Both the position numbers and the translations under genes were made by a program. From the IMG/VR virus record IMGVR_UViG_3300012943_000034, positions 1 to 63,685 of that record: a stretch of DNA of 63,685 bases, one strand, 5' to 3'. The DNA comes from a virus. Taxonomy: Duplodnaviria; Caudoviricetes. The notes beneath the pieces are model-generated. The model saw nothing but the letters and a program-made list of their open reading frames with translations, had not been told where the DNA came from and did no database searches. Positions 17,019 to 63,685 of the stretch are shown one piece after another (within the stretch, counting starts at the first letter, position 1; every line of letters starts with the position of its first letter).

Positions 17019-17785
17019 AGCTTACCCTCATCAACCATTTGCAATAAGCTTTGGGTTCCTAGCTTTGATTCCATGTTTTTTAAATCTTTACGAGTGATCA
17101 TTTTACCTGTCTCAAGGTACTGGGTTATGGCATTGAGGTTTCCCATTAGTGTTGGTATGTCATGCCTTTTGGTCACAAACCATGTGTCAGGCATTTTGAA
17201 ATAGGCTGAGACAATGTCCTTAGACCTATCCAAACCTATTTGCTTAACCAAGGTTTTTATAAGCTTCGCATGGTGAGGCATCACGACGGGTGATTTTTCT
17301 GATTTGTAGCGATCTTTCCAGTTGTCACAATACAGCGCAACAATTTGGTGAGAATTTTCAGAAACAGGCACCGCCTCTTTTGGCGGTTGCGGAGCATCTT
17401 TTTGGATCCGCTTCTCCTTCGGTATTCTATTCTCTTCTTTTCTATTCTTTTCTATTCTATTATTAAAGAACGGAATTTTTTCGTACGTAACTAGCTGTAA
17501 TTGTTGAATGTGATCTAGCAACTTCGTGACGTGGTAGCCTCTACCTCCACACGACCTCACTAGCAGTTCGTGAGTACATTCGATGGAGTTCGATGTGTGT
17601 TCGCCACAACATAGGAGCAACTTCAGGTATAGAAGCTTACCACCTTCAGACAAGATCGAGACTTTTGAATCATCTAAAAAGCTTGTAGAAAGCAAGATAC
17701 TTCGATGCCCTTTTTTCTTAGTTCCGTTGTACTTTTCCCAATTTTTAACTGTTATTTTATAGATGTCTTTTTTATGCGACGACAC
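17015..17785 (-). CDS. replication initiator (lambda O-like)
   Basis: KNWEKY N-terminus, winged-helix-like region, RIEKNRKEENRI linker, DnaD-like C-domain; GGGAGGGG RBS before GTG. Confidence 0.7.
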   Translation of the reverse strand: MSSHKKDIYKITVKNWEKYNGTKKKGHRSILLSTSFLDDSKVSILSEGGKLLYLKLLLCCGEHTSNSIECTHELLVRSCGGRGYHVTKLLDHIQQLQLVTYEKIPFFNNRIEKNRKEENRIPKEKRIQKDAPQPPKEAVPVSENSHQIVALYCDNWKDRYKSEKSPVVMPHHAKLIKTLVKQIGLDRSKDIVSAYFKMPDTWFVTKRHDIPTLMGNLNAITQYLETGKMITRKDLKNMESKLGTQSLLQMVDEGKL

Positions 17786-17917
17786 AGTTGGACCCCTCCC
17801 ACGCTTTGTTGATTCACTTTAAATATGTAGAATCCACAATATTGTAAAGAACAAGGAGTCCAGCTTGCAATATTAACACATTGCTTTATTTAATTAGGTT
17901 TTCAAATTGCCTGTATT

Positions 17918-18664
17918 TTAGATTAAATCAGAGTCTTTTAATGTTGCGATGCGTTTAACCAAAGCTTCTATTGCTTCTGTAACATTTACATGGCTGACAT
18001 CGGTCTCTCCGGGGGCGATAGCTCTCTTAAATCTCTCTACTTGTAGAGTGAATTCATTAGCAAGTGTCTCTGGTAATTTAAGCTTAACCGTAACGAAGCC
18101 ATCTGACTCTTCCTCCTCTTCTGTTGTAACCGAAGAAGTTGGTTGAGCTGGATGCTCCCAATCAAATTTTGTAAGCTTTGTGAAGTTAACCAATTCGTCT
18201 GGTTTGAAAGGCATTTCACGAGCAAGGTCATCATAGTTTAGATTGTTTTGTAAGTGAGTCATCAACTCTGCGAACTTTACTGGATCAGATTTGAAGCGTG
18301 TTTCATTCGTTACCACAGCGATCTTCTTCGCTCTATCGAGTGAGATTTTACCCAAGTTGTATGCGATCACTTTTGTTTTTTTGAGAGTCATGCAGGCATC
18401 GTATCTATGGTTACCGTTCACAACTTCATATTTTTTAGGGCCAAGCTCTCTTACAATGATGTTCTCAATCTGACCGTTCTCTCCAATGTTGTTCACAAGC
18501 TGTGACATCATAAACTCGTCTTCTTCTTTATAATTCCAGTCTGCTTTAACAAGCTGTTCAATAGGAACTGCAATGAAGTTCTCTAGGTCATCTCTTACTA
18601 CGAACTTTTCTGGTGCTCTTTTTGGTTCAGGTTTTTTTACTTTTGGAGTATTTTTTTTAGCCAT
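17918..18664 (-). CDS. ParB/Srx-domain protein
   Basis: WNYK...GQIENIIVR...YEVVNGNHRY; last gene of the deazaguanine operon. Confidence 0.85.
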   Translation of the reverse strand: MAKKNTPKVKKPEPKRAPEKFVVRDDLENFIAVPIEQLVKADWNYKEEDEFMMSQLVNNIGENGQIENIIVRELGPKKYEVVNGNHRYDACMTLKKTKVIAYNLGKISLDRAKKIAVVTNETRFKSDPVKFAELMTHLQNNLNYDDLAREMPFKPDELVNFTKLTKFDWEHPAQPTSSVTTEEEEESDGFVTVKLKLPETLANEFTLQVERFKRAIAPGETDVSHVNVTEAIEALVKRIATLKDSDLI

Positions 18665-19602
18665 GATATTTCCTTGCCCTGTATTTTGTTGGGTCTTTTG
18701 TAATTAATAATTGCTTGATGAACTAGATCAACTGCTTCATCTAAATCTTCGTACAGTTTAAAGTCACGTAAAACTTCTTTGTAGCTTAAACGGTTTGGCG
18801 CAACAGGAATACAGCCGTTGTTAACTGACTCAACCATTGCAATTCCGTAGGTCTCCTGCAATGCGGTTGATACCGAAACCTTTGCACGAGCAAGAAGCTT
18901 GTAATACTCGTCTTTAGTTTTACAAACATCTTTTGTTCTTACCCAAATAGTTTCGTGGCCGTACTTCTCCCCGTATTTCATCATCATTACATCAAATTGA
19001 TCTGGCTGTTTTTCTGGCGCAAGCCTGTGAGGAAATACTACGATGTTATCTTTTTCATATAAATTAAAATCAGTCTCTACAGGCCACTCTACAATCTCCG
19101 ATTTACCTTGAAGGTCTAAGCCTGCATCACCAATGAGATGTCTGTGAAAGTCAGTTGCCAGTAAAATTTTATCACAAATGTTAATAACAGATTGTTCAAA
19201 GCTTCTTCCCCAATAGCGCATTCCGCTTCTAGTAAGGAAGTCATGTGGATCGTATGTACCAGCATGAAGCATTCCAACTATTCTGATGTCCATTTTAAGC
19301 GCATCACGAACATAGGCGATCATCTCAATTCCAGGAAACCAAACGTCTGTAAAAAATATTGTGTAAGAATCTTTTGGAAACATTTTTAAGGTAGCTAGAA
19401 TTTGCGAGATCTGTTTGTTCTTATATTGATTCGTGTCCACTACATCTAAGAATTCGCCTTGCGTGATATGTCTTTCAGTGTAGTCCCCGACTCTTATAAA
19501 TGGAATGCCATGCTTTTTAAAGGCTGCTTCAAACCAATCGTCCCACTGACTACTGTATCTTTCTTGCAGCCTCTCAATAGGTACGTAGATTATTCTTTCC
19601 AA
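18637..19602 (-). CDS. GT-B (GT4-like) glycosyltransferase
   Basis: HAGTYDP, VVFPHRLAPEKQP, LQETYGIAMVES (E-x7-E), PNRLSY. Confidence 0.8.
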   Translation of the reverse strand: MERIIYVPIERLQERYSSQWDDWFEAAFKKHGIPFIRVGDYTERHITQGEFLDVVDTNQYKNKQISQILATLKMFPKDSYTIFFTDVWFPGIEMIAYVRDALKMDIRIVGMLHAGTYDPHDFLTRSGMRYWGRSFEQSVINICDKILLATDFHRHLIGDAGLDLQGKSEIVEWPVETDFNLYEKDNIVVFPHRLAPEKQPDQFDVMMMKYGEKYGHETIWVRTKDVCKTKDEYYKLLARAKVSVSTALQETYGIAMVESVNNGCIPVAPNRLSYKEVLRDFKLYEDLDEAVDLVHQAIINYKRPNKIQGKEISWLKKILQK

Positions 19603-20450
19603 TTAATACCTCTAGATGTCCAAAGCTTTGTAAAGAAAACTTCAAGATCTCTATATTGCTTCGCTGAATATTCCAACTTCTTTTTATTTGCAATTCTGTC
19701 TCTCTTAGATGAGTGCAAGTCCATATCTAAGTTGTTCTCAAAGAAGTGTGCCTTAGATGATTTAACAGTTTTAATTTTACTGTATTCAAATTTGTTGATA
19801 GCCCCATATCTGATTGCTGTGGTCCAACTGCTGGAGTCCACAGAATAAAAAGGGAAGTGGTAAAGTAATTTAGTTCTTGTGAAAGCGAACCCGTGGATTT
19901 TAATACCTCTATCATAAGCGTATTTGATGTATTTATTGTACAACATCATAGATTGACCTTTACGGATACCCTCAATAGCGATGTACTTTGATTTGGAGTT
20001 CTTGCAGAGCTTAACAAAGTCTTCCCAATTATTAAATGAATGATGTACTGTAATCAGCTTGTGGCCGATGCCAGCTTTGTTGATCTGATCTCTCCACTGA
20101 TCTACGGTGTCTTTTCCAACAAGCTCCTGAAGGTCTAGTTCACAGAAATAATCAAAGTGATCTGCCCACTCCTTCGCCCACTCAAAATAGTTTTTGAAAT
20201 AGGCGTGAGGATCTGGGACTGATGAATCTTTCTTTTTGCTTGAAGTAACTGAGATGCCCATTTTCTCGAAGAAACTATGGGCACCAGAATCAATTGTGAT
20301 GATCCCTTTATGCTGTCTTTCCTTTAGCTTCTTGAGAGAATTTTCTGTGATGTTCTTGTAGTAATAAGTTAAAAAAACATTAGTATCTAGCGGTACTGCT
20401 GGATCGTAGTTTTTACACTGAGTCTCATAAGCCGCTAAATATATTTTCAT
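19590..20450 (-). CDS. dpdA: DpdA-like DNA 7-deazaguanine transglycosylase (TGT fold)
   Basis: IDSGAHSF, ELD, VHH, YIAIEG, IHGFA, SVDSSSW; adjacent to folE/queE/queD. Confidence 0.75.
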   Translation of the reverse strand: MKIYLAAYETQCKNYDPAVPLDTNVFLTYYYKNITENSLKKLKERQHKGIITIDSGAHSFFEKMGISVTSSKKKDSSVPDPHAYFKNYFEWAKEWADHFDYFCELDLQELVGKDTVDQWRDQINKAGIGHKLITVHHSFNNWEDFVKLCKNSKSKYIAIEGIRKGQSMMLYNKYIKYAYDRGIKIHGFAFTRTKLLYHFPFYSVDSSSWTTAIRYGAINKFEYSKIKTVKSSKAHFFENNLDMDLHSSKRDRIANKKKLEYSAKQYRDLEVFFTKLWTSRGINWKE

Positions 20451-20785
20451 TTATAAACCTTTGCTCCGTTTTCGTTGTCTTCAAATACAGATGCAGAACA
20501 CAGACCTAATCCTATGATGAGAGACTTGGCAATTTGTTCACAAGAAGAGGTGCCCAACGTATGCAACCCATCTTTTACTGGATAAAGTTTTTGAATTAAT
20601 TCAAGTGCTCGGTGTTTTAACATAATGAATTCGGTATCACGATCATCGTGGCTTACAAGTTTTTCTGCCTCAACAAAGAAGACGTGCCTGTGTGGGTGCT
20701 TTAGATATTCCACTTCTTCATGGGGGCATAAAGGCCAGTAGTGCAATCCTTCAAACTGAAACTTCGCAATAACTGTTACCTTCAT
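20447..20785 (-). CDS. dpdL: DpdL-like QueD paralogue (putative CDG decarboxylase)
   Basis: T-fold pattern with LKHPHRHVF (LxxxHRHxF), SCEQIA, EDNENGA. Confidence 0.7.
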   Translation of the reverse strand: MKVTVIAKFQFEGLHYWPLCPHEEVEYLKHPHRHVFFVEAEKLVSHDDRDTEFIMLKHRALELIQKLYPVKDGLHTLGTSSCEQIAKSLIIGLGLCSASVFEDNENGAKVYK

Positions 20786-21378
20786 TTGATAAGCCCTAAG
20801 AATTCTGATCTCGCTTCTTGCTGTTCAAACAAACCTTTGATCGATGAAGTAACCATAGATGAATGTTGTTTCTTAGCTCCACGGGCACACATACAAAGAT
20901 GCTTTGCTTCAATCACAACAATGACACCTTTTGGCTTTAGAACTTCATTTAAAGTGTCTGCAATTTGTTGAGTAAGTTGCTCTTGAATCTGTAGTCTTCT
21001 TGAGAATACTTCAGTTAACCTAGCAAGCTTTGATAAGCCGACCACTCTGTCTCCCGGTATATAACCAATGTGAGCCTTGCCGAAGAACGGGATCATGTGA
21101 TGTTCGCAAGTAGAATACATCTCAATGTCTTTGCAAATGACCATTTGATTGTACTCGCCTTTTTCAAATGTAGTCCCAAGAACTTCTTTAGGGTCCATTG
21201 CATAACCACCAAATAATTCTTTAAAAGATTTTATCACACGCTTAGGAGTATCTAAAAGTCCTTCACGTTCTGGGTTTTCTCCAATGTGCTCAAGAAGTTT
21301 TCTAATTAAGTATTGGCCTTGATCGTCTTTTGTTAAGGTACTTTCATCCACTTGTGAGTCTGTAGACTTATTTTCCAT
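20782..21378 (-). CDS. folE: GTP cyclohydrolase I
   Basis: REGLLDTPKRV, STCEHHMIPFFG, GLSKLAR, RLQIQEQLT, HLCMCARG. Confidence 0.97.
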   Translation of the reverse strand: MENKSTDSQVDESTLTKDDQGQYLIRKLLEHIGENPEREGLLDTPKRVIKSFKELFGGYAMDPKEVLGTTFEKGEYNQMVICKDIEMYSTCEHHMIPFFGKAHIGYIPGDRVVGLSKLARLTEVFSRRLQIQEQLTQQIADTLNEVLKPKGVIVVIEAKHLCMCARGAKKQHSSMVTSSIKGLFEQQEARSEFLGLIK

Positions 21379-21938
21379 TGTGGGTTCTCCTTTATGTATT
21401 CAAAAATAGTTTGTAAGTTGTCATCGAATCCGTTGAATTCAGGGCTTAAGCTTAGGTGAGCACCTTGATCGTCTTTATGTTTATCTAAGATGGATAAATC
21501 AAACCCTTTTTCAATCACATACTTGTATTCATCGACTTTAAATCTCATCGCAGGATTGATAAAGAATTCTGGCAATCCTTTTTGCACATACTTCTTAGGT
21601 GAGCACGTAACAAAATCAATCCCCTCAACAGGAGGCATACTGCCGTTTGTTTCGCAGGCAACGTAGAATCCTAAGTTTTTAAATAGCTGTACAAGATGTG
21701 GAGTTTGTTTATTCATAAGCGGTTCACCGCCTGTGATCACAACAAATCTAGCCTTCTCTTTTTGGGCGAAATCAACTAGGTCAGTTGCATCCCATTCTTT
21801 GTAGGTGTTGTATTCTGTATCACACCAAGGGCATGAATAATTACAAAACGGTAGCCTTACAAATAAAGCTCTTTTACCAGCGTGAAATCCTTCGCCTTGA
21901 AATGTCCAAAACACATCGTTAATTCTAAAGGTTTCCAA
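21333..21938 (-). CDS. queE: 7-carboxy-7-deazaguanine synthase (radical SAM)
   Basis: TFQGEG, CNYSCPWCDT, VITGGEP, ETNG, SLQTHK; TTG start after GGAGGAG. Confidence 0.95.
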   Translation of the reverse strand: METFRINDVFWTFQGEGFHAGKRALFVRLPFCNYSCPWCDTEYNTYKEWDATDLVDFAQKEKARFVVITGGEPLMNKQTPHLVQLFKNLGFYVACETNGSMPPVEGIDFVTCSPKKYVQKGLPEFFINPAMRFKVDEYKYVIEKGFDLSILDKHKDDQGAHLSLSPEFNGFDDNLQTIFEYIKENPQWKISLQTHKWMKVP

Positions 21939-22398
21939 AATACTCCTCCGCTTTGAACCATATTGGTTCGCCTTCGTAGAAAGCAGAATTTTTCTCATGC
22001 TCTCTTACTTCAACTTTGTAACAACAAACACGACCTTTTTCTTCTTCTTTGAGCCATGTATTGACCCAATCCCAAAGGAAATCAGAAGTACCTTCCATCC
22101 CAACATTGTCAAGTATTACAAGCTTGCAAGCTCCAAGTAATTCCAAGTCTATAAACTTTGGTAAGAGTGGATCGTCTTTATTTATCAGCAATGTGTGATC
22201 AAATTTATCATCCAAAAAAGCTTTCAATTTTTTTAGCTTTCCAAAATGCATCACAAATTTTGTATCAGTTAATGAGTGAGCTTTGAAAAAGAAATGGAAT
22301 GATCTATCGTACCCGTGGATGAATTTACAATGCGAATCATCTCGCCATTGGCGGTGAGCACAGGAGTAATTAAAATAGCTCTTAGTTGAGGCATACAT
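21925..22398 (-). CDS. queD: 6-carboxytetrahydropterin synthase
   Basis: AHRQW...HCKFIHGY, FDHTLL, EHEKNSA. Confidence 0.92.
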   Translation of the reverse strand: MYASTKSYFNYSCAHRQWRDDSHCKFIHGYDRSFHFFFKAHSLTDTKFVMHFGKLKKLKAFLDDKFDHTLLINKDDPLLPKFIDLELLGACKLVILDNVGMEGTSDFLWDWVNTWLKEEEKGRVCCYKVEVREHEKNSAFYEGEPIWFKAEEYFGNL

Positions 22399-22531
22399 AT
22401 TTTTAAGTCCAATCAGAGGTACCTTATCTGTAACTAAACAGTTCTCAAATACCCTAGAACGAAGGTATCTATCAAAGCTTGCACAGGCAATAATAATTTG
22501 TTTTATCCATTGGTTTATTGCATTTAAAGTG

Positions 22532-22592
22532 TCTCAATTACTAATCTCAATTACTTTTTTTAATTGCTTTTTATAATGAGATGCGTTATTAT
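22532..22592 (+). promoter_or_regulatory. sigma70-type promoter of the plus-strand early region, with upstream direct repeat
   Basis: TTGCTT (22564)-17 bp-TATTAT (22587); TCTCAATTAC at 22532 and 22545; AAGGAG then ATG 22617. Confidence 0.7.
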
Positions 22593-22616
22593 TATGGTAT
22601 AGCTAAGGAGTACACA

Positions 22617-22802
22617 ATGAAGGTTCAAGTTTTTAAATCAGAGTTCGGTGAAGGTGGAATCGCAATAAGAGTAATAGTTGATAAGTATAACAACAGAATT
22701 GTTATACAAGAAGACCTAACGGTAATAACAATGGATGCAGGCGAGTTTTCAGCTTATACCATCGAAGCTCAATTTTCTTTTATCGAAGAAAAGGAGGTTT
22801 AA
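22617..22802 (+). CDS. small early hypothetical protein
   Basis: AAGGAG RBS, first ORF after promoter. Confidence 0.6.
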   Translation: MKVQVFKSEFGEGGIAIRVIVDKYNNRIVIQEDLTVITMDAGEFSAYTIEAQFSFIEEKEV

Positions 22803-22803
22803 A

Positions 22804-23163
22804 ATGAAAACGATTTATCAATGTAAAGAATGTAATAGTCAAGATTGTAATATTTCAGATACAGGCGTTCCATATTGCGTTTCCTGCGGAGCTTATGGTC
22901 CGTGTATTGGCTTTGGCGTAGCCAAGAACAGCCGCTTAGATAACTTTTTAAAGCTAAAAGATCACGCAATGATTGGTAAGGATTTTAAGAAGCTCACAGC
23001 ATTAGAGGTCGGCGAGTGTGTTCACTTTATAAATGAGAACGAAGGATTGGACTCGAACAAATACGCTGAGAAAGCAAATAGATGGAAGTTGGATCAACCT
23101 GAAGCTAGATCAAAAAACTATACGATAATGTGGTCGCTTTTGATACAGAGTAACAACAAATAA
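22804..23163 (+). CDS. Zn-ribbon protein
   Basis: AGGAGG RBS; CKEC...CVSC. Confidence 0.6.
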   Translation: MKTIYQCKECNSQDCNISDTGVPYCVSCGAYGPCIGFGVAKNSRLDNFLKLKDHAMIGKDFKKLTALEVGECVHFINENEGLDSNKYAEKANRWKLDQPEARSKNYTIMWSLLIQSNNK

Positions 23164-29675: not shown

Positions 29676-30257
29676 TCATGGCTTAATCCAAACAGAAACG
29701 TAGGCTTTAAGTGCCTCTGGAATTCCCATTCTATCGAAGAACTTCTTAACTAAAAAGTGTTTACCTGAATCATCTGAATTGCAATCGTCTACAACAATTA
29801 AACAACCTGAAGGAAGTTTATCGTAGCAAGCCGCAAGCTCTCCAGCGTGATGTAGCTCGCTTAAACCGTATGGTGGGTTATGATCGTATGAATCTAAGAA
29901 CAGCATATCGCAATTTGGAAGAGTAAATTTCACACTTGGATCATTTAACAAAGCGTTTATTGAGTCAGCACAGATCACAGTAGTCTTCTCACTTGTTAAA
30001 TCTTTGGCAACTTTACAAGAATGTTCTGAAAGATCAATTGTGATAACTTTACCGCCAGTTTGATTGGCTAAGAAGTCCCACTGAAGAGTGGATTGTCCGT
30101 CGCCATGCCAGTTGTTTGGAGTTCTAGCGCATCCAGTTTCAATGATATTTAATGGCTTATTTTTTTTAAGCAGATGATCTGCAATAAATAAAAAACATTC
30201 CCAGCGTCTTGAATCACCCAAATGTGGGCCGAATTTTTCTACATAATCTTTAATCAT
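29676..30257 (-). CDS. class I SAM methyltransferase (Methyltransf_24-like)
   Basis: IIETGCAR, GQST, ITID, DS, DMLFLDSYD, IVVDD. Confidence 0.8.
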   Translation of the reverse strand: MIKDYVEKFGPHLGDSRRWECFLFIADHLLKKNKPLNIIETGCARTPNNWHGDGQSTLQWDFLANQTGGKVITIDLSEHSCKVAKDLTSEKTTVICADSINALLNDPSVKFTLPNCDMLFLDSYDHNPPYGLSELHHAGELAACYDKLPSGCLIVVDDCNSDDSGKHFLVKKFFDRMGIPEALKAYVSVWIKP

Positions 30258-31270
30258 AATGTGCTCCTAACGTAGTCCATAACCTCAACTGGCGTTGGCA
30301 ACAAAGCCTGCATCAGTTCAGGTTCTATAAACTCTACAGTAACTTCTTTTTCCTGAATTGGGTTGAAATCAGTATGGTTCCACATTCCATCTTTGCCAAG
30401 ATTTTTCATGCGCCATCCCCACTGACCATTTCTCCAATGAGTAATATAATCAGGGTGTTTACAGCTTGCAATAAAACCTATGTGGGCTTCACCAGCCGCA
30501 GCAATGTGAAGAGGAGAAGAATCATTAGTAAGAAGTACATTCGTATTTTTGCAGAGCCAGATAAGCTCTTTAATAGACGTTTTATTTCTGAGATCAACGC
30601 ATCCCTCACTGTTCACATCAACTGTAGATCGGTTGTCGTCAGTGTCTTTACCAATGAGGATTGGAGTTAAGCCGTACTTAATGATCTCTGACAAAACATC
30701 GTCCCACCATTCTTTAGGGAATGTTTTAGAAGGCCAATGCTTTCCAGCGTGGACAACCACGTATTTTTTTTTATTATACAAAAGGGCTTTTGCCCAATGT
30801 GTATCTGGCTCATCGGCTTCTAATTTAATTTCTTTATCGGCAACTGGTAGCTGTAATCTAAACATACACACAGAACAAAAATCTACACAATGGGCTAGGC
30901 AATGTGAGAAGAATTCCCAAAGTAAATTACTTGGATCAACGATTGATCTGAACACCATGTAATTTGATTCAACTGGCTTAACTCTTTTTAAATCAAAGAC
31001 TTCTTTAAACTCTAAGTGTGAAAATAGTTCTGGAGCTTCTGATGCAAGAGAAATCTCAATGCCTTTAAATACTTTTTGAGCATATCTTATCACTGGTTCA
31101 GCGCAGACTTGATCGCCCAATCCTCCCCATGTAACAATTAGAAACTTCTTTCCGTTTCCTTTTTTAATTGCTTTACCTACGTTAAATGATGGGATCTGAT
31201 CAGCAGGCAAAACCATTTTATCGCCAGGAAAGGCGAAAGGGTTCGGGCCTTGATTTTCTTGTTCATTCAT
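30254..31270 (-). CDS. GT9 glycosyltransferase
   Basis: GGLGDQVCAEP, HAGKHWPSKTF, DLRNKTS, TNDSSPLHIAAA. Confidence 0.85.
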   Translation of the reverse strand: MNEQENQGPNPFAFPGDKMVLPADQIPSFNVGKAIKKGNGKKFLIVTWGGLGDQVCAEPVIRYAQKVFKGIEISLASEAPELFSHLEFKEVFDLKRVKPVESNYMVFRSIVDPSNLLWEFFSHCLAHCVDFCSVCMFRLQLPVADKEIKLEADEPDTHWAKALLYNKKKYVVVHAGKHWPSKTFPKEWWDDVLSEIIKYGLTPILIGKDTDDNRSTVDVNSEGCVDLRNKTSIKELIWLCKNTNVLLTNDSSPLHIAAAGEAHIGFIASCKHPDYITHWRNGQWGWRMKNLGKDGMWNHTDFNPIQEKEVTVEFIEPELMQALLPTPVEVMDYVRSTL

Positions 31271-32616
31271 TATGTGTAATACTCCAGTAAGACAGCCGTT
31301 GCTTGTCGGTTTGAAATGTTGATGCCACCGAAGTAAACTCCTGTAGCGTCAAAAGCAATTTTATATGTCTCACCGGGATTGACGTCAATTAATTTAATTT
31401 GTTCATTGATATTGGGCACTCTAAAATTCAATTGAGGAGAAAGCACCGCAACAGGAGATGATTTTGGAACAACTGTTCCATCACCCAACTGCCCAGAGTT
31501 ATTGTTACCCCAAGCCCATAGTTGACCATTTTGATCTAAGCATACGCTATGATCTTCTCCTGCTCCTATATAAGCTGGAACGATATTTCCTAAAACTAGA
31601 GTCGGCGTTGATTTGGCTACAATAGTACCATCGCCAAGTCTTCCGTTAAATCCAGAACCCCAAGCCCAGAGCTGACCTCCGAGACTATTTCTTCTATCTG
31701 TAATTCCTAGAGTATGAACATCTGATGCCGCAATAGATTGGAATTGAAATCCTGTAATTAGAACCGGAGATGATCTTGGAGTTGTATCGCCCAATCCAAG
31801 TTGTCCAGAACCATTGTTACCAAAAGCGTATGTTCCAAACTCAGATATGATAAATGATGTATCATTAACGCCACCAGCAAATACCTTATAAACTTTGCTA
31901 GTAAAAGAAGAAACCAAAGTTGGAGTTGATCGAGCAATCTGATCTCCCAATCCTAATTGTCCAAAACCATTGTTACCCCAAGCCCACAATCTGTTATCAA
32001 CATCAATAGCGAGACAGTGTCCTGCGCTTAAGGCAACGTCTATGAATTTTACTCCAGCAGAAACTAATATTGGAGATGATTTTGGAATTATAGTATTATC
32101 GCCAAGCTGACCAGCGTTGTTTGATCCAAATGTCCAAATGTCATTATTTTCATCGATACCAGCAAATCCAATAGATTGATTCATTATCGCAATCTTTTTA
32201 AATTTAACTCCACCGATAATCAATACTGGAGTAGACCTATTCGTAACCGTCCCATCGCCCAAACGACCAAGTCCGTTGTTACCCCATCCGTAAGCATCGC
32301 CGTTAGAATCTAAAGCGTATCCAGTCTCTAAACCACTTGCTATTTGAACTAGCTTTCTACCACCGAATGCAACCGCTACCGGAGAAGATACAGGTGCTGC
32401 CGAGTTATTACCAATTACTCCTGAGGCGTTTAAACCCCAACAATAAACGTCACCGTCATAGGTATATCCTCCAGCCCAATCTCTTCCCACTGAAATAGAG
32501 GGACAAAGCTGTTCATAGAAAATAACCTTTAACTTTTTAACACCACCTGGACACACCCACGATTCAGGGGTATTTGATGGAGCATTATAAAAGAATTTTT
32601 TAGCTAATGACTTCAT
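31270..32616 (-). CDS. RCC1-repeat beta-propeller protein 3 (putative receptor-binding)
   Basis: Seven WGxNxxGxLGxG...SSP/STP repeats. Confidence 0.9.
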   Translation of the reverse strand: MKSLAKKFFYNAPSNTPESWVCPGGVKKLKVIFYEQLCPSISVGRDWAGGYTYDGDVYCWGLNASGVIGNNSAAPVSSPVAVAFGGRKLVQIASGLETGYALDSNGDAYGWGNNGLGRLGDGTVTNRSTPVLIIGGVKFKKIAIMNQSIGFAGIDENNDIWTFGSNNAGQLGDNTIIPKSSPILVSAGVKFIDVALSAGHCLAIDVDNRLWAWGNNGFGQLGLGDQIARSTPTLVSSFTSKVYKVFAGGVNDTSFIISEFGTYAFGNNGSGQLGLGDTTPRSSPVLITGFQFQSIAASDVHTLGITDRRNSLGGQLWAWGSGFNGRLGDGTIVAKSTPTLVLGNIVPAYIGAGEDHSVCLDQNGQLWAWGNNNSGQLGDGTVVPKSSPVAVLSPQLNFRVPNINEQIKLIDVNPGETYKIAFDATGVYFGGINISNRQATAVLLEYYT

Positions 32617-34142
32617 GCTGAGTATTCCAAAATTACTCTTTTTACTTTATCTGCTGATAGAAATTCGCTCTCTATCGCACAGTAAAAAGGTGAGATTTGT
32701 AGTTCTATATTTGATCCAGGATTCACTACGATTCTTCTTGAAACATCTGTTCTAACTTTTTTATCTATATAAAGACTTCCAGCAACCAGAACCGGAGATG
32801 ATCTTGTAGTCACAGAGTTATCGCCCAAAGCGCCCTGACTATTCGAGCCCCATGCGTAGACGTTTCCGTCAGAAGAAAGAGCAAAACATTTATTTTGATA
32901 AGCAGCGAATTCTAAGAATGAATAGTTTCCGATAACCAAAGTTGGAGTAGATCTAGGAGTTTGATCGTTTGTTCCTAAGTTACCAAGCTGGTTTGAACCC
33001 CACGCCATTAATTTTCCTTCAGTAGTTAAGCTAAAGAAAGCATACTCCTTTGAAGTTCCATCAACAATTTGGCTAAAGATATTTAAAGATTTCATTCCAG
33101 AGATTAAAACTGGAGATGATTTACTTACGTTAGATCCATCTGGTATTCCTCTAAAATGACCCCAAGCCCAGACTTCTCCGTTATACTTAATTCCGAAACA
33201 CGTCCCACCATCGCCAAAGATTCTTGTAAAGATATGGCTTCCAAGAACTGCTACAGGAGAAGACTTGGTTACCGTAGTTCCATCGCCAAGCTGTCCATGT
33301 TCATTGCTACCCCATGACCAAGCCTGACCGTTAGAATCTAAAGCGTGAGTCGCAGAAGTATAGTTACCAGCAGCAGGCCCAAGCCAGTATTGATTTCTAG
33401 ATACTGCAACCACACTTGAAACACCTACGATTAATGTAGGAGAAGAAACTCCAGCACCCGAGAATCCTAAGCTGCCGTTTTTATTCTGACCCCAACTATA
33501 TAATCTACCATCGAAATCTAAGGCAATCACAGAAGGAGTAAGAGTGTGTACATAAAAATCTACAAATTTATTTGAGCCAACGCAGGCAACAGGAGATGAT
33601 TTTACAACTGTAGTTCCATCGCCAACTTGACCATCATCATTCGCACCCCACGCATAACCATTTCCGAAATGATCTAGACAATAAACAACCTGATTTTGGT
33701 ATCCAACTTCAAATTTTACAAATCTATTTGTTCCTGCGATAGCCGTAGGAGTAGATACGGTAGTTGTATTTCCAGTTCCAAGCTCACCGTTAATGTTTGA
33801 ACCCCATGCCCATATTTTTCCACAGGCATCTAAAGCGAAATTAGATCCAGCTCCAAGTCTAGCTTGATAAAACTTAAGACCTTTTGATACAGCCGTTGGC
33901 ACTGATTTGTTGACAACTGTCCCGTCACCGAGTTGGCCTTGGTTATTCGCACCCCACGCATATAAAACTCCGTAATCAGTTTTTAATCCAGCTCCCGCAT
34001 TGATGTTACCAAACAGGTATCTATTCTCTTTATCTATCTCTACTGTCACCAACATTTCAGTAACGGCAGTCGGCACAGTGAATGTTTGAGTTTCGCCATT
34101 TGCGTTCGGATAGAATATCTTTTTAGATAAATTTTTACTCAC
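32613..34142 (-). CDS. RCC1-repeat beta-propeller protein 2
   Basis: Repeated AWGxNxxGQLGDGTxxxKSSPV. Confidence 0.9.
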   Translation of the reverse strand: MSKNLSKKIFYPNANGETQTFTVPTAVTEMLVTVEIDKENRYLFGNINAGAGLKTDYGVLYAWGANNQGQLGDGTVVNKSVPTAVSKGLKFYQARLGAGSNFALDACGKIWAWGSNINGELGTGNTTTVSTPTAIAGTNRFVKFEVGYQNQVVYCLDHFGNGYAWGANDDGQVGDGTTVVKSSPVACVGSNKFVDFYVHTLTPSVIALDFDGRLYSWGQNKNGSLGFSGAGVSSPTLIVGVSSVVAVSRNQYWLGPAAGNYTSATHALDSNGQAWSWGSNEHGQLGDGTTVTKSSPVAVLGSHIFTRIFGDGGTCFGIKYNGEVWAWGHFRGIPDGSNVSKSSPVLISGMKSLNIFSQIVDGTSKEYAFFSLTTEGKLMAWGSNQLGNLGTNDQTPRSTPTLVIGNYSFLEFAAYQNKCFALSSDGNVYAWGSNSQGALGDNSVTTRSSPVLVAGSLYIDKKVRTDVSRRIVVNPGSNIELQISPFYCAIESEFLSADKVKRVILEYSA

Positions 34143-35647
34143 GAGTAATACTCCAAAATAACCTCTTCGCAGTTCTTGTACGAAATAGGAGATTGATTGA
34201 AAGTTACATACCCCTCTGAGAACTCAACTGAATAATCTCTTCCTGGCTTTACTGTAAAATATTTTAAATTTGGAGGAAGCATTGAGAATCTAGTTATTCT
34301 ACCAAGCTGATTTGATACGGCTACGGGAGATGATTTAGATACGATAGTGTTATCGCCCAAGCGACCTGAGTTGGCAGAACCCCATGCCCATAAATAACCA
34401 TCAGCATCAGCAGCGTATGAAGTAGAGTTTCCTAAATCGTATTGAATATATTTACCAACAAGTTCTGGATAAGATTGATTTATGCCGGGGTTACCAGTGC
34501 ATTGACCGAACCCATTCTCTCCTGCCATCCATAGATCATTTTGCTCTACGTGTATTCCTATGAAGTTTGTTCCACCTTTTAAATCTATAACTCTGTAGTC
34601 AAAAGGGTTTTCAAAAGGATCGCCAGTTACCAGAACCGGAGATGATCTGTTTACCTGATCTCCTAATGCAAGTTGTGAAGCATTATTTCTACCCCAAGAA
34701 TAGAGTCTGCCATTTTTACCGATTGCATAGCATGAATTATTGAATGCAAAAATTCTCTCAAACTTTTGAGATGAGAGAACCATTACAGGAGAAGAAGTAT
34801 TACTTGTGGTGTTTCCATTTCCGAATTGACCATATTGGTTATCATCGCCCATCGCCCAAGCTTGTCCTGTTACATCTAAAAATAGAGCGAAGTTTCCACC
34901 GATAGCAACTTGCTTAAATGCTTTCGATGGAACAACTAGAGTAGGTGAAGAAAAAGGTGAGTTAACAAAGTCAATAGAACCCCATCTCCACAACAAACCT
35001 TTTTCGTTTATACCGTAGGTGATCGCACCATTTGTCCAAATATCTTTCCAGCGATTGGGGCCAACAACTTGCGTAGGAGATGATCTGTCGTTTGTATCAC
35101 CAACACCAAGGCATCCAGAGTTATTTGAACCCCATGCGAATGCGGCACCGTTATTGTCTATAGCTATTTTAGAAGAAGGGGAGAGAGCCGCTTTATTGAA
35201 TTTATATAAACCAGCAACCAACACAGGAGATGATCTTCTTATTGTTGTTCCATCACCTAATTGTCCTGAGAAATTATCGCCCCAATTCCAAGTATTTCCA
35301 TTTGTATCAATAGCTAAATTTGATTCAGAAGTTGAAAGAGAATTTGTTTTTGAAAGGAAAAATTTAGAGTAAAAATTAGATCCAGAAACAATAACTGGAG
35401 ATGATTTCATTATAAGAGTGTTATCACCTAATTGTGCTTCAGCATTATATCCCCATGAATACAGATTATATTTGTCTGCTGTACCAGCAGTTGAAACTTT
35501 CGAAAGTGAGAATGCGCCTTGAGCACCGCCAATGACACCTTCTAGTTTATTTGGATTAGGGTAAACAATTACACGCTGAACGCCGCCTGGACATTTCCAC
35601 GTCTTATTTGCTCTGTTTAAAACAACCCTAACCAAATTCTTTTGCAT
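34139..35647 (-). CDS. RCC1-repeat beta-propeller protein 1
   Basis: Repeated WGxNxxxQLGD...SSPV. Confidence 0.9.
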   Translation of the reverse strand: MQKNLVRVVLNRANKTWKCPGGVQRVIVYPNPNKLEGVIGGAQGAFSLSKVSTAGTADKYNLYSWGYNAEAQLGDNTLIMKSSPVIVSGSNFYSKFFLSKTNSLSTSESNLAIDTNGNTWNWGDNFSGQLGDGTTIRRSSPVLVAGLYKFNKAALSPSSKIAIDNNGAAFAWGSNNSGCLGVGDTNDRSSPTQVVGPNRWKDIWTNGAITYGINEKGLLWRWGSIDFVNSPFSSPTLVVPSKAFKQVAIGGNFALFLDVTGQAWAMGDDNQYGQFGNGNTTSNTSSPVMVLSSQKFERIFAFNNSCYAIGKNGRLYSWGRNNASQLALGDQVNRSSPVLVTGDPFENPFDYRVIDLKGGTNFIGIHVEQNDLWMAGENGFGQCTGNPGINQSYPELVGKYIQYDLGNSTSYAADADGYLWAWGSANSGRLGDNTIVSKSSPVAVSNQLGRITRFSMLPPNLKYFTVKPGRDYSVEFSEGYVTFNQSPISYKNCEEVILEYYS

Positions 35648-54385: not shown

Positions 54386-56077
54386 TTAAAAGGTCGGTAC
54401 TCGTTGCCCGAACCCGCCAACACTGAATCCAGTGTAGTCCCCGTCCATTACTTTTTGCCACTCAACTGGGTCATTCACATATACAGCGAGAACCCAAGAT
54501 CCTTTCTTAACAATTTGTTTACCAAACTGTCCATTAAACTCTAAGTCCTGCGGTGCGATATAGCTCTCAACAGGTGTCGAGTCGATCTTCTGTGAGTGTC
54601 TTGATCCAACTACTCGAGACTTCATTAGGTAATAATGTGCAGCTTTTTCAATATCTTCTGCTGTCATCCAATCACCTTGAGCATCGATCTCGTCAGGTGT
54701 TAACACCACACAATACACGATTTGCTTCATTGACTGTGCTTTGCAGATCGGAACCAATTTAGATTCCTTAAGTATTTTTTCAACTAATAAATCCAATGGA
54801 TCATTTTTGTTCTTAAGTCCAGCCGATTTTACGATCTGAGCCTTCTCTTTATAAGACTTAGATGCAGTTATTCTTTCAACGTTCGCTACCTGTTCAATAG
54901 CTTGATAAACAGGAGAACTCTTAAATAGATCATCGACATTGAGAGAGAAAGAATCGCTAAGAGCACTAATAGCAAGGCGTTGATCAAATGGTAATGCAGC
55001 ATACATACTTTCTGGTTCTTTTAGTTCAACATGAATTAATTTAATGAACTCTTGTCTGTGAATTACGGGGCTGCCCGCATCAACTTCCTTCTGGTTGCTC
55101 GTGTGGTAGAACTCAACGACCCCGGAGAAACAATCAGGGTGCAACCTAACATTCCCTTCGTATATAAAAATACCGCCGGGTGCGAGTACACGTTCGATTT
55201 CCCGTAAGGTATTTTCCGTATCGCATAGAGGGAGTACATCAAAGGTATTTCTAAGAAGAACCCTTTCACAACTTTCTTGAGCAAGCGGAATACCGAGCGC
55301 AAGGTCGTGAACAATCGTTCCGTAATCGTGCGGAAAAAGATCAAAACCCAAGTAACCGGGTTCCCGTATTGCGCCCGAGCCGAGGTCAATTCTGAGTAAG
55401 TTTGAATCATATTTTTCACCTAAGTCGCTTGAAATTAACTTCTTATAGTGTAGAGGATCTTTTTTAAGATTATCAATAACTGTTTTTAGTGCATCTGTTT
55501 GATCTACATCTTCGTATGATAACTCGTAGTCCATGCCCTCAATTAAGGTAAGCTTATCGTGCATGATATAATATTCTGAATCGAACTTTTTTACGTTCCT
55601 TAAGATGTTTTTTAATAGTTCGTTGTATTCCATTTTTACGTGTAGGTTTTGTTCGATCTCTTCTGGTAGTCCATTGGTTATATCAACCCACTTCCAGCGA
55701 TACACTTCACCATCAGGATCGTTCTTCATTGTTGTTGAAGCTTTCTCATCTAACTCTACTCTGAATGTTTGAACTGTGAGTCCTTCTTTAACAAGGGTTG
55801 GTTCAGTGACAGATTCGAGCATTGCCTCTTCGATTTGAATGCCCGACTCTTCCATCACTTCTCTTACAGCACCTTCATGGAATGATTCTCCCTCGTCTAC
55901 ATGGCCTCCGGGTACGGTCCACTTCTCGTTATCTCTTCTTTTACCCATAAGCAATTTGCTACCAAACATTAGAGCAACTGAAGCGACTCTTCTATCACCG
56001 GATTCTTTTTTAATTAACTTTTTTAAATTTACAATTACACCATCTAAAAAGGCCAATGCGTGATCTGTGTTTGTCAT
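54386..56077 (-). CDS. multidomain head protein: NUDIX hydrolase, helical domain, SAM methyltransferase-like domain, XkdF-like prohead protease
   Basis: Nudix box GGHVDEGESFHEGAVREVMEESG; IDLGSG...RVLAPGG; VYCVVLTPD..DAQGD...IEKAAH...H...VESYIAP...KGSW...YTGFSVGG. Confidence 0.85.
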   Translation of the reverse strand: MTNTDHALAFLDGVIVNLKKLIKKESGDRRVASVALMFGSKLLMGKRRDNEKWTVPGGHVDEGESFHEGAVREVMEESGIQIEEAMLESVTEPTLVKEGLTVQTFRVELDEKASTTMKNDPDGEVYRWKWVDITNGLPEEIEQNLHVKMEYNELLKNILRNVKKFDSEYYIMHDKLTLIEGMDYELSYEDVDQTDALKTVIDNLKKDPLHYKKLISSDLGEKYDSNLLRIDLGSGAIREPGYLGFDLFPHDYGTIVHDLALGIPLAQESCERVLLRNTFDVLPLCDTENTLREIERVLAPGGIFIYEGNVRLHPDCFSGVVEFYHTSNQKEVDAGSPVIHRQEFIKLIHVELKEPESMYAALPFDQRLAISALSDSFSLNVDDLFKSSPVYQAIEQVANVERITASKSYKEKAQIVKSAGLKNKNDPLDLLVEKILKESKLVPICKAQSMKQIVYCVVLTPDEIDAQGDWMTAEDIEKAAHYYLMKSRVVGSRHSQKIDSTPVESYIAPQDLEFNGQFGKQIVKKGSWVLAVYVNDPVEWQKVMDGDYTGFSVGGFGQRVPTF

Positions 56078-62880: not shown

Positions 62881-63077
62881 TTTTCCTCGAATTTATATTT
62901 TACGACCTTGCCCACTTGTGAGCGAGGTATCTCCTCGGTTGGCAGGAATACTACGATCTGTTTTTCTTTATAGGTGATCTGAAAGAACAAGCCTACTCCT
63001 TCGAGCGGATAGCTCATACCTTTCATCTTTACTACGTTTTGAACCACTGAATTATCTGACTTGGGTTTGGTAGCCAT
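62877..63077 (-). CDS. hypothetical protein
   Basis: Coupled ORF. Confidence 0.5.
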   Translation of the reverse strand: MATKPKSDNSVVQNVVKMKGMSYPLEGVGLFFQITYKEKQIVVFLPTEEIPRSQVGKVVKYKFEEK

Positions 63078-63685
63078 GATTCGAGAGTAACAGGAAGAAC
63101 ACGAGCTACGTCAACTGCTTCTACGCAATTCGCTGGGGTTTGGTAAACGTCCCAAACGCCCCCTAGTGAGAAGTCTTTCATATTGTAGCCCATTTGACCG
63201 TTCCTCATGTGGGTAAGTAAATGAGGCTGCTTTACGGTTGCCAGATAAGCGATCTTCGCCTCTCCTGCTGCCGCAATATGGAGTGGTGCTGAATCATTTG
63301 TTATGACGTGCTTAGATTTAACGCATAGCCACATTAGGTCTGACAAGGACAGCTTGTTTCTCAAATCATAAACTCGGTCTGTGCAAGGGCTGAAGTCCAA
63401 TACACCACGAGCTGAATCCATTTGATCTCCAACAATTACTGGGTACAAACCGTTTGCTTCACACTCTCGAATACACTTCTGCCACCAGCTTGCAGGGATG
63501 GTCTTAGACTGCCAATGTTTCCCCGGGTGCATTAGGACCATGTGATCACCTACAAACTCTTGCAAGTCCATCTCTGATTCTTCTCTAGTAATTTTTAAGT
63601 TCAGCTCCCAATACTTAGGCGGGAGATCTCTTCCAAACATTGCAAGGCAAGGGTAGTTTACAGAGTGGATAAGAAGTTGTTGGAA
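63032..63685 (-). CDS. GT9 glycosyltransferase, 3' part (gene starts at 429 across the origin)
   Basis: HPGKHWQSKT, DLRNKLS, TNDSAPLHIAAAGEA. Confidence 0.85.
   Translation of the reverse strand, partial: FQQLLIHSVNYPCLAMFGRDLPPKYWELNLKITREESEMDLQEFVGDHMVLMHPGKHWQSKTIPASWWQKCIRECEANGLYPVIVGDQMDSARGVLDFSPCTDRVYDLRNKLSLSDLMWLCVKSKHVITNDSAPLHIAAAGEAKIAYLATVKQPHLLTHMRNGQMGYNMKDFSLGGVWDVYQTPANCVEAVDVARVLPVTLESWLPNPSQIIQWFKT
63563..63685. repeat. Terminal direct repeat copy 2
   Basis: Identical to 1-123. Confidence 0.95.

Follow-up and report, generated by a model that had tools for sequence, protein, structure and literature searches.

Phage deazaguanine systems and the window locus

The closest described relative of the system considered here is that of Cellulophaga phage phiST, which encodes FolE, QueD, QueE, DpdL and the transglycosylase DpdA3 in the absence of QueC, and in whose DNA the deoxynucleoside of 7-deazaguanine (dDG) replaces all deoxyguanosine (Cui, Hutinet et al., NAR 2023, PMC10516641). 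According to the same study, the signature LxxxHRHxF separates DpdL from QueD (CxxxHGH), and DpdL is proposed to be a decarboxylase of 7-carboxy-7-deazaguanine (CDG). This activity has been put forward in print but not demonstrated in vitro, even for the DpdL of phiST or ACP17, and dpdL plus dpdA of phiST, or of ACP17, gave no dDG when expressed in E. coli (PMC10516641). The supplement of that study lists the DpdA and DpdL proteins of ACP17 and PA5oct; the glycosyltransferase (GT) gene that lies between them is not mentioned, and neither the main text nor one supplement file contains the string “glycosyl” (0 occurrences). The DNA analysed here, referred to below as the window, is the entire 63,685 bp of the virus record IMGVR_UViG_3300012943_000034, which is rated a complete virus genome and carries direct terminal repeats (repeat of 123 bp). 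It contains a seven-gene operon that combines a phiST-like pathway with such a GT.

As in phiST, QueC is missing from the window, QueD carries the motif CxxxHGY, a DpdL with the LxxxHRHxF signature is present (tblastn to phiST CGPG_00067, the founding DpdL: 37.5 % identity, query coverage 90 %, 1e-10) and the locus encodes a transglycosylase of the DpdA family. Unlike in phiST, however, this transglycosylase is DpdA1-like and not a DpdA3, and beside it stand genes for a GT4-type glycosyltransferase and a ParB-like partner, neither of which the phiST locus has. The locus is of the known DpdL-type deazaguanine kind, in a form that is new, and it predicts an undescribed sugar-bearing purine in DNA. 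On balance we lean, if only slightly, towards the view that this is a DpdL-type 7-deazaguanine operon with a built-in GT, and that the virion DNA carries a glycosylated 7-deazaguanine in place of plain dDG. To our knowledge, the only DNA bases so far known to bear a sugar are pyrimidines, namely the glucosylated hydroxymethylcytosine of T-even phages, other glycans on 5-hydroxymethylcytosine (5hmC) and base J; a glycosylated 7-deazaguanine, if it exists, would be the first purine among them.

A functional analogy is offered by QTMAN (GTDC1), the GT4 mannosyltransferase of queuosine in tRNA, which is likewise a GT4-type enzyme that glycosylates a 7-deazaguanine derivative in a nucleic acid. QTMAN, however, transfers its sugar to a hydroxyl on the cyclopentenediol side chain of queuosine, and such a hydroxyl is missing in 7-deazaguanine (DG). 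Membership of the window GT in the QTMAN family was considered and rejected: the QTMAN_N domain (PF12038) is found in 0 of 43 members of the GT family (E<=1), in 0 of 32 further relatives (E<=0.1) and nowhere in a six-frame search of the genome (E<=10). QTMAN is thus retained as an analogy and not as a family.

The second point of comparison is the glucosyltransferases of T-even phages and related 5hmC enzymes (10.1101/2023.12.21.572611). Like these, the window GT is a phage enzyme of GT-B fold in a DNA-modification cluster, with a presumed nucleotide-sugar donor, and some of its relatives have sugar-activating genes nearby. In contrast, the 5hmC enzymes modify the hydroxyl group that 5-hydroxymethylcytosine presents in DNA and, in the available part of that source, the GT-B ones resemble the T4 beta-glucosyltransferase, whereas the window GT is GT4-like, is tied to a purine pathway and would act on an acceptor without a hydroxyl. 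The words purine, guanine and deaza have 0 occurrences in that available part.

The seven-gene operon

The seven genes lie on the minus strand from 22398 down to 17918 and follow each other in the order QueD, QueE, FolE, DpdL, DpdA, GT and ParB-N.

21925..22398, minus strand: QueD-type 6-carboxytetrahydropterin synthase (157 aa; CxxxHGY variant; Pfam PTPS 2.8e-22; phrog_2389 4.8e-37)
21333..21998, minus strand: QueE-type radical SAM CDG synthase (221 aa; Radical_SAM 2.7e-10; phrog_2076 2.5e-33)
20782..21378, minus strand: FolE, GTP cyclohydrolase I (198 aa; GTP_cyclohydroI 2.9e-74; NCBIfam FolE 263.7 bits against a cut-off of 174)
20447..20785, minus strand: DpdL-type T-fold protein, proposed CDG decarboxylase (112 aa; LxxxHRHxF; phrog_17812 2.1e-18; no match in Pfam)
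19590..20450, minus strand: DpdA1-like DNA guanine transglycosylase (286 aa; phrog_887 “queuine tRNA-ribosyltransferase” 8.6e-31; no match in Pfam)
18637..19602, minus strand: GT4-type, GT-B, retaining-type glycosyltransferase (321 aa; TTG start; Glycos_transf_1 1e-07)
17918..18664, minus strand: ParB-N-domain protein (248 aa; ParB_N 3.6e-07; phrog_723 1.3e-18)

Successive genes overlap by 74, 46, 4, 4, 13 and 28 nt, and the operon is bounded by a 132-nt gap downstream and a divergent intergenic region upstream. Given the 74-nt overlap with QueD, the true start of QueE may lie further downstream than that of the open reading frame (ORF) listed here. An earlier note on this DNA, made from the letters alone, had named all seven genes; every call was right, the ORFs lying exactly where it had placed them and the family matches agreeing. 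A promoter and terminator scan of positions 17500-22900 yielded nothing usable, with 9 promoter-like sites (15.3 expected) and 3 terminator-like sites (3.2 expected). When the 4.5-kb operon was compared at the nucleotide level with 50,697 phage records there was no match, and the ParB protein had none at 1e-5 by tblastn against the same records; among these records, a cassette of the window type is thus without a cultured representative.

Precursor synthesis and DpdL

The conversion of GTP into CDG by FolE, QueD and QueE is established chemistry of these families. In the window, QueE is matched by the NCBIfam QueE models at up to 7.5e-28, yet under their equivalog cut-offs. QueD reads C24-x3-H28-G-Y, a variant that replaces the canonical CxxxHGH and that, in the alignment, is common to the QueD proteins of phiST and ACP17, while those of phage 9g and of locus L014 retain HGH. 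This subgroup (window 21925-22398; L001:3804-4280; L086:3442-3936) differs by one residue from the published signature and travels here with DpdL.

The absence of queC, queF and archaeosine synthase reported in the earlier note also holds. A six-frame search of the whole record with the QueC family PF06508 gave no match, the same search being positive in 13 of 14 known genomes used as controls, and Pfam scans of 10 + 92 ORFs of at least 50 aa revealed no QueC, no stand-alone QueF and no member of the archaeosine-synthase family. The sole QueF match is a cross-hit within FolE (2.3e-06).

The window DpdL contains L28-K-H-P-H-R-H-V-F36, that is LxxxHRHxF, so that the signature named in the note is both the published one (PMC10516641) and present in the protein. 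It has 16 invariant positions in common with seven other DpdL proteins; H15, L28, H32, H34, F36, H46, R49, E52, S81, C82, E83, E102 and D103 are invariant in 8 DpdL sequences that include phiST CGPG_00067. The genomic context is also that of a DpdL, with FolE, QueD, QueE and a DpdA in the genome and QueC absent. The 112-aa protein is accordingly of the DpdL type, and its reaction would be the decarboxylation of CDG.

Linkage of the glycosyltransferase to DpdL and DpdA

The earlier note coupled the GT to the dpd genes, a link that would fall if homologues of the GT showed no genomic linkage to them. The opposite is found, and co-occurrence across phages is strong. The GT family comprises 327 proteins at E 1e-3 or better, and the IMG/VR loci used below are the best 80 of at least 596 stretches encoding a GT relative, the best 80 of 444 DpdL relatives and the best 80 of 197 ParB loci. 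Since they were gathered with the GT, DpdL or ParB as bait, related phages included, the counts do not represent independent events. DpdL is encoded in the flank of 76 of the 80 GT loci, usually less than 1 kb away, and in all 4 misses the GT sits at a contig edge. A DpdA is present in 74 of them (26 DpdA1-like, 47 DpdA3-like and 1 DpdA2-like).

Cultured phages present the same picture. By tblastn, GT matches occur in 23 records, DpdL matches in 28 and both in 18, namely ACP17 (2), eleven PA5oct-like Pseudomonas jumbo phages, Phosso, BCSR5, X1, BUDD and BUCT-ZZ01. All 18 full-length GT matches have DpdL as a direct neighbour or no more than about 4 kb away; in ACP17 and PA5oct the GT gene is placed precisely between those for DpdA and DpdL, and in Phosso and X1 it stands beside them. 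The five records with a GT match only are weak partial matches in Xanthomonas and Erwinia jumbo phages (68 % coverage, 25 % identity), which were treated as an outgroup and not counted as exceptions. One of them was inspected (Xanthomonas phage PhiXhv-12, L168:4612-7846): a distant GT4 stands there beside genes annotated as GlmS and N-acetylglucosaminyl-malate deacetylase, with no dpd genes nearby, and the locus looks like a different phage sugar pathway.

In the reverse direction the association is looser. The GT occurs in 51 of the 80 DpdL-baited loci, and in 34 of the 52 that have at least 3 kb on both sides. In a DpdL tree, proteins with and without a neighbouring GT interleave, although this quick tree (143 columns, many open forks) is weakly resolved. 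The GT is thus almost never found without DpdL, about one third of the DpdL loci do without the GT and the two kinds are mixed in the tree, which together argue that the GT is an optional add-on step downstream of DpdL. It would then depend on the DpdL product and work as a unit with its own DpdA lineage. The attachment of the GT to DpdL in viruses could also mean that the enzyme assists the synthesis or delivery of DG, for instance by forming a short-lived glycosyl ester of CDG that is more readily decarboxylated or handed over to DpdA, the final base being sugar-free dDG. This we consider improbable: GT-less DpdL operons are numerous (29 of 80 DpdL loci), phiST reaches full dDG replacement without a GT, so that DpdL does not need one, and the negative result in E. 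coli was obtained with dpdL and dpdA of phiST as well, although phiST lacks a GT.

Clustering of the ORFs in the 80 GT loci reveals two recurrent viral layouts. The PolA type reads QueD-QueE-FolE-DpdL-(456-aa radical SAM)-GT-DpdA1-clamp-PolA. The marine PolB type consists of a 508-aa DpdA3-like gene, DpdL, GT, cupin, FolE, phosphoribosyltransferase, HIT protein and QueE. Genes for a nucleotide-sugar epimerase (21 loci) and a cytidylyltransferase (13 loci) near the GT in other phages fit a real sugar transfer. The 456-aa radical SAM protein, encoded between DpdL and GT in 17 PolA-type loci (L006, L008, L009, L011-L015, L017-L022, L025, L026; e.g., L018:6631-8001), may elaborate the base or the sugar further; since its gene is absent from the window, the GT step is independent of it. 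In marine PolB-type phages (L030-L083; e.g., L059:9867-10484, L039:11028-11420, L038:9344-9859), the vicinity of DpdL-GT includes a phosphoribosyltransferase (Pfam 5.4e-08), a HIT-family protein, a cysteine-dioxygenase-like cupin, an epimerase and a cytidylyltransferase; the phosphoribosyltransferase suggests that these phages process the deazapurine at the level of the nucleotide.

Exchange of GT and DpdA as one cassette

Pairs of closely related phages with and without the GT differ in their DpdA. Contigs L149 (with GT) and L115 (without) encode proteins of 98 % identity for QueE, 88 % for FolE, 89 % for DpdL, 68 % for ParB and 73-92 % for further ORFs, whereas their DpdA proteins are only 23 % identical, over 138 residues; “GT + DpdA” of L149 occupies the site that holds a different DpdA in L115. 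A like pattern is seen when L118 is compared with L104 and L096 (DpdL 71-72 %, FolE 70-73 %, ParB 61 %, DpdA 26 %). The GT-associated DpdA proteins (window, L149, L150, L118) share 37-86 % identity with one another and the GT-less ones (L115, L145, L104) 59-70 %, as against 23-29 % between the two groups. Within the DpdA sublineage of the window type, the GT is present at 17 of 18 distinct loci, and the exception is at a contig edge. The GT and its DpdA therefore move as one cassette, an arrangement that is new here.

The exchange bears on the order of the steps. The earlier note had assumed that the GT acts on DNA after DpdA, but a model in which dDG is decorated after its insertion does not predict that DpdA should change together with the GT; either DpdA takes the sugar-bearing base or the two enzymes cooperate physically. 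Two separate sublineages of GT-associated DpdA have Ala after the catalytic D-S-G and Ala after H-G-F, where the GT-less enzymes of DpdL-type operons have Leu and Gly and those of QueC-type operons Gly and Gly. These group-specific residues rest on few lineages and on sequence positions only, and give a hint of a difference in the substrate pocket. Taken together, cassette and residues make glycosylation before insertion at least as likely as the order assumed in the note. The acidic isoelectric point (pI) of the GT and its likeness to small-molecule GT4 enzymes, described below, lean the same way, towards a DpdA that handles the sugar-bearing base. A GT that acts on the free base, with a co-adapted DpdA inserting the product, is thus held to be marginally ahead of a GT that decorates dDG in DNA. 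We know of no DNA glycosylation that does not act on the polymer, and the base-first route, if true, would be the first case of a DNA sugar modification installed through base exchange.

A prediction of the DpdA + GT complex, run without controls, scored 0.00 in both runs and speaks neither for nor against binding. No longer fused forms of the GT, such as GT-DpdA fusions, were detected at 1e-5 in a search that is in itself weak evidence.

DpdA and its ParB-like partner

In blastp comparisons the window DpdA matches the DpdA1 of phage 9g (9e-13; 23 % identity over 168 residues) and the DpdA of Fusobacterium phage phiFN37 (2e-21), while ACP17 DpdA2 and phiST/PA5oct DpdA3 are not significant. The Pfam TGT family gave no match in it at E 0.01 or better. 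Its predicted structure (predicted local distance difference test, pLDDT, 92.2) retrieves tRNA-guanine transglycosylases at Foldseek ranks 1-6 among PDB entries (E 1.6e-4 to 6.1e-4). D54 (in D-S-G), G56, D106, H186 and D205 are invariant in 30 related sequences, and D54, D106 and D205 presumably correspond to the catalytic residues of the tRNA-guanine transglycosylases. The protein, whose pI is 9.4, is DpdA1-like, and from its sequence it is predicted to replace guanine in DNA with a 7-deazaguanine.

Base insertion by bacterial DpdA requires DpdB, an ATPase of the ParB superfamily with the motif DGQQR, as seen in work on Salmonella Montevideo (PMC10164549). The window locus resembles that system in having a transglycosylase next to a ParB-superfamily protein with a motif of nucleotide-binding type, here NGNHR in place of DGQQR. 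Unlike DpdB, however, the window protein is a short ParB_N protein that goes with the phage DpdA1 lineage, in a setting of phage counter-defence and not of restriction-modification.

Its ParB_N match scores 30.6 bits against a cut-off of 26.3, and N83-G-N-H-R87 is invariant in 32 sequences of the ParB-like family, which numbers 224 proteins. Among the 80 ParB loci, a DpdA1-like gene stands directly upstream of ParB in 66 when the window DpdA is the query and in 67 when phiFN37 DpdA is, its end usually lying only a few bases from the ParB start. In at least six of the loci without such a gene, ParB lies less than 1 kb from the contig start. A GT is found in 20 of the 80 loci and DpdL in 32, which argues that the ParB-like protein is the partner of DpdA1 and not of the GT. 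The cultured phage phiFN37 (L084:5519-7828) has a ParB-like gene, DpdA and a “queuosine precursor transporter” in a row, with no biosynthesis genes in a stretch of 12.8 kb, and this locus is a minimal salvage-type DpdA1-ParB module. No DpdB model matched the window ParB; NCBIfam returned only ParB, Noc, RepB and PRTRC, all below their cut-offs, and PADLOC returned no Dpd model for it. The protein is thus not a member of the DpdB family, but by analogy it probably works like DpdB.

The glycosyltransferase and its acceptor

The GT scores 32.1 bits with Glycos_transf_1 (PF00534; cut-off 26.4), and 42 of the 43 family members match this model at E 1 or better. A sequence search against solved structures gives only marginal matches to GT4 C-terminal domains (E 0.55 and 0.012). 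The predicted structure is confident (pLDDT 95.4) and has a GT-B fold nearest to GT4 enzymes: Foldseek retrieves MshA, BshA, GlgM and Gtf3 at about 1e-10, and in VIA-align the top three Z scores are 24.8, 24.2 and 24.1 over 279-301 residues, sucrose-phosphate synthase reaching 24.8 and BshA 24.2. The T4 alpha-glucosyltransferase (1y6f) comes at rank 43 with Z 16.9, below many GT4 enzymes, and the T4 beta-glucosyltransferase is absent among the best 50 fold matches. The best viral structural match is a protein of ACP17 (E 2e-25, TM 0.83).

E250-x7-E258, R193 and K198 are invariant in 43 GT sequences; we take E-x7-E to be the mark of GT4. A further 17 invariant residues, many of them aromatic or acidic, lie in the N-terminal, acceptor-side domain. 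With the confident model, this conservation makes the GT look, from its sequence, like an active enzyme with a conserved acceptor.

What that acceptor might be is less obvious, and several observations weigh against a sugar on deazaguanine in DNA. The GT4 enzymes that match best in fold have small molecules or glycans as substrates, and the GT is not basic (pI 6.2, which is also the family median, although pI is a weak proxy for DNA binding and no more than a hint). Fold and pI speak against direct action on DNA; they do not speak against action on the base. DG has no hydroxyl and GT4 enzymes normally glycosylate hydroxyls, so that the reaction would have to be an unusual one, C-, N- or carboxyl-linked. 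No nucleoside data for any GT-bearing phage were found in the literature. The relatedness of the counted loci, the few lineages behind the DpdA residues and the ParB results from NCBIfam and PADLOC belong on the same side of the balance, as do the bacterial loci described below.

The same properties would suit a phage that makes plain dDG, as phiST does, and uses its GT elsewhere, on a soluble deazapurine or pterin (a by-product, a storage or a detoxified form), on a protein or on the host envelope, the gene being kept beside DpdL for regulatory or metabolic reasons. The small-molecule GT4 enzymes near the GT in fold include the tetrahydrobiopterin glucosyltransferase 5zer (Z 21.3), the pI is acidic, DG lacks an obvious acceptor group, and the phage has three other GT genes, of GT9 type, unrelated to DNA genes. 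Against this, the GT adjoins DpdL and DpdA across three DpdA subfamilies, in PolA- and PolB-type phages and in bacterial islands, and the exchange of the GT + DpdA cassette is difficult to account for if DpdA neither takes up the GT product nor cooperates with the GT. We therefore consider a GT that acts outside the DNA pathway unlikely.

Among contigs of prokaryote genomes, 49 GT loci contain a DpdA in 41 cases and DpdL in 30. Twelve long-flank loci, mostly of alphaproteobacteria, combine the GT with a DpdA3-like gene and have no detectable DpdL, so that the acceptor need not be DG itself, and the surroundings of one GT relative, from Paenibacillus polymyxa, are free of dpd genes within 8 kb. 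The constant partner of the GT is hence a DpdA, and in viruses DpdL too. In a Pelagibacterium island (L186:3027-9020), the GT stands beside a DpdA3-like gene with a serine recombinase and two unknown proteins, while DpdL, FolE and QueE are not detected; L187, L189, L190, L193, L196, L198, L199, L208 and L216 likewise hold GT-DpdA3-like islands without detectable DpdL, FolE or QueE. A match to the YhhQ/Vut_1 transporter family in L186 is weak (1.7e-4, below the cut-off). Such islands may be a salvage-fed sugar-deazaguanine module in cellular DNA.

These loci would also fit a sugar-bearing base built on an acceptor other than DG, such as a sugar ester of CDG in DNA or an imported deazapurine, with a DpdL that is not a simple decarboxylase in these operons. 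All 12 do without DpdL and one has the weak transporter match; the activity of DpdL has never been demonstrated in vitro, and for a glycosyltransferase a carboxylate is a less unusual nucleophile than a carbon of the ring. However, DpdL proteins with and without a GT reach 89 % identity and are intermingled in the tree, so that both kinds very likely carry out one and the same reaction, which gives dDG in phiST, and the viral GT is essentially never found without DpdL. For the window, a different acceptor is held to be a distant prospect.

Proposed pathway

The preferred reading, a glycosylated 7-deazaguanine in the virion DNA, can be laid out in four steps. FolE, QueD and QueE would build CDG from GTP, and DpdL would decarboxylate CDG to DG, a step supported by the dDG of phiST. 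The DpdA1-like transglycosylase would then exchange guanine for the modified base in replicated DNA, the phage having no DNA polymerase gene of its own, and the ParB-like protein would aid DpdA as the ParB-fold ATPase DpdB aids bacterial DpdA. The GT would put a sugar from a nucleotide sugar onto the deazaguanine, before or after the exchange. Because the phage encodes no sugar-activating gene, the donor is probably the host's. It is in these terms that we infer the reaction of DpdL, the sugar transfer, its donor, the acceptor atom, the order of the steps and the function of ParB.

As DG offers no hydroxyl, the link to the sugar could be a C-glycosidic bond at C7. We know of no GT4 enzyme that glycosylates carbon in this position. 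The most specific version of the proposal, in which the free base is glycosylated, possibly as a C-glycoside at the electron-rich C7, and is then swapped into finished DNA by a dedicated DpdA lineage, is accordingly put forward as a tentative one, with much more doubt than confidence.

Occurrence and implications

The module is widespread, with at least 596 GT relatives in IMG/VR, and its carriers include T4-like phages from the sea, jumbo phages, cultured isolates that infect Pseudomonas, Acidovorax, Xanthomonas, Sinorhizobium and Synechococcus, and some bacterial islands. PA5oct, which carries it, has a restriction-resistant modified G, and PA5oct-like phages are sensed by nucleases specific for hypermodified DNA; the available part of the report lists genes for QueE and PTPS but contains neither a structure of the modified G nor a mention of the GT (PMC12191111). 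A DNA-glycosylase preprint uses “glycosylated” of cytosines only in its available part, and a jumbo-phage review speaks of no more than “predicted capabilities” with regard to PA5oct and deazaguanine. No published account of the GT-DpdL/DpdA module or of a glycosylated deazaguanine in DNA was found, although subscription-only papers and supplements could hold more.

The GT module could explain several observations at once: the modified G of PA5oct-like phages and its recognition by nucleases for hypermodified DNA, the lack of dDG when dpdL and dpdA of ACP17 are expressed in E. coli, and why such genomes may resist cutting or sequencing. It also provides a handle on the real reaction of DpdL and on the choice of substrate by DpdA, for which near-identical phage pairs with and without the cassette are available. 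Cultured GT-bearing phages are at hand for testing the predicted sugar-bearing purine, and the ParB-like partner could serve as a small phage model of why DpdA requires an NTPase, a need that has so far gone unexplained.

Other features of the phage genome

The structural genes are those of a contractile-tailed phage, with a Mu-type portal, a T4-type terminase, a sheath-like DUF3383 protein and a baseplate J protein in the Pfam scan. Scans of the whole genome with Pfam found no DNA polymerase family and no sugar-nucleotide (sugar-activating) gene among the 102 ORFs of at least 50 aa. The three further GT-like ORFs, of the GT9 (heptosyltransferase) family, lie on the minus strand at 365-1495, 30254-31270 and 63032-63640 (Pfam 2.8e-07, 2.5e-14 and 4.9e-11), one just downstream of RCC1-repeat genes and two near the genome ends; they may act on virion proteins, on the host envelope or on a longer glycan carried by the DNA. 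A 563-aa fusion protein is encoded on the minus strand at 54386-56077, in the head-morphogenesis block, and joins a NUDIX domain, a methyltransferase-like stretch and an XkdF/S78-type prohead protease. Three RCC1-repeat proteins (448, 509 and 502 aa; Pfam down to 1.3e-66) are encoded in a row on the minus strand at positions 31270-35647 of the window, in the tail-fibre region, and a family of 68-nt DNA repeats with 8 copies spans their genes. These proteins probably serve in receptor binding, as beta-propellers of an unusual type.

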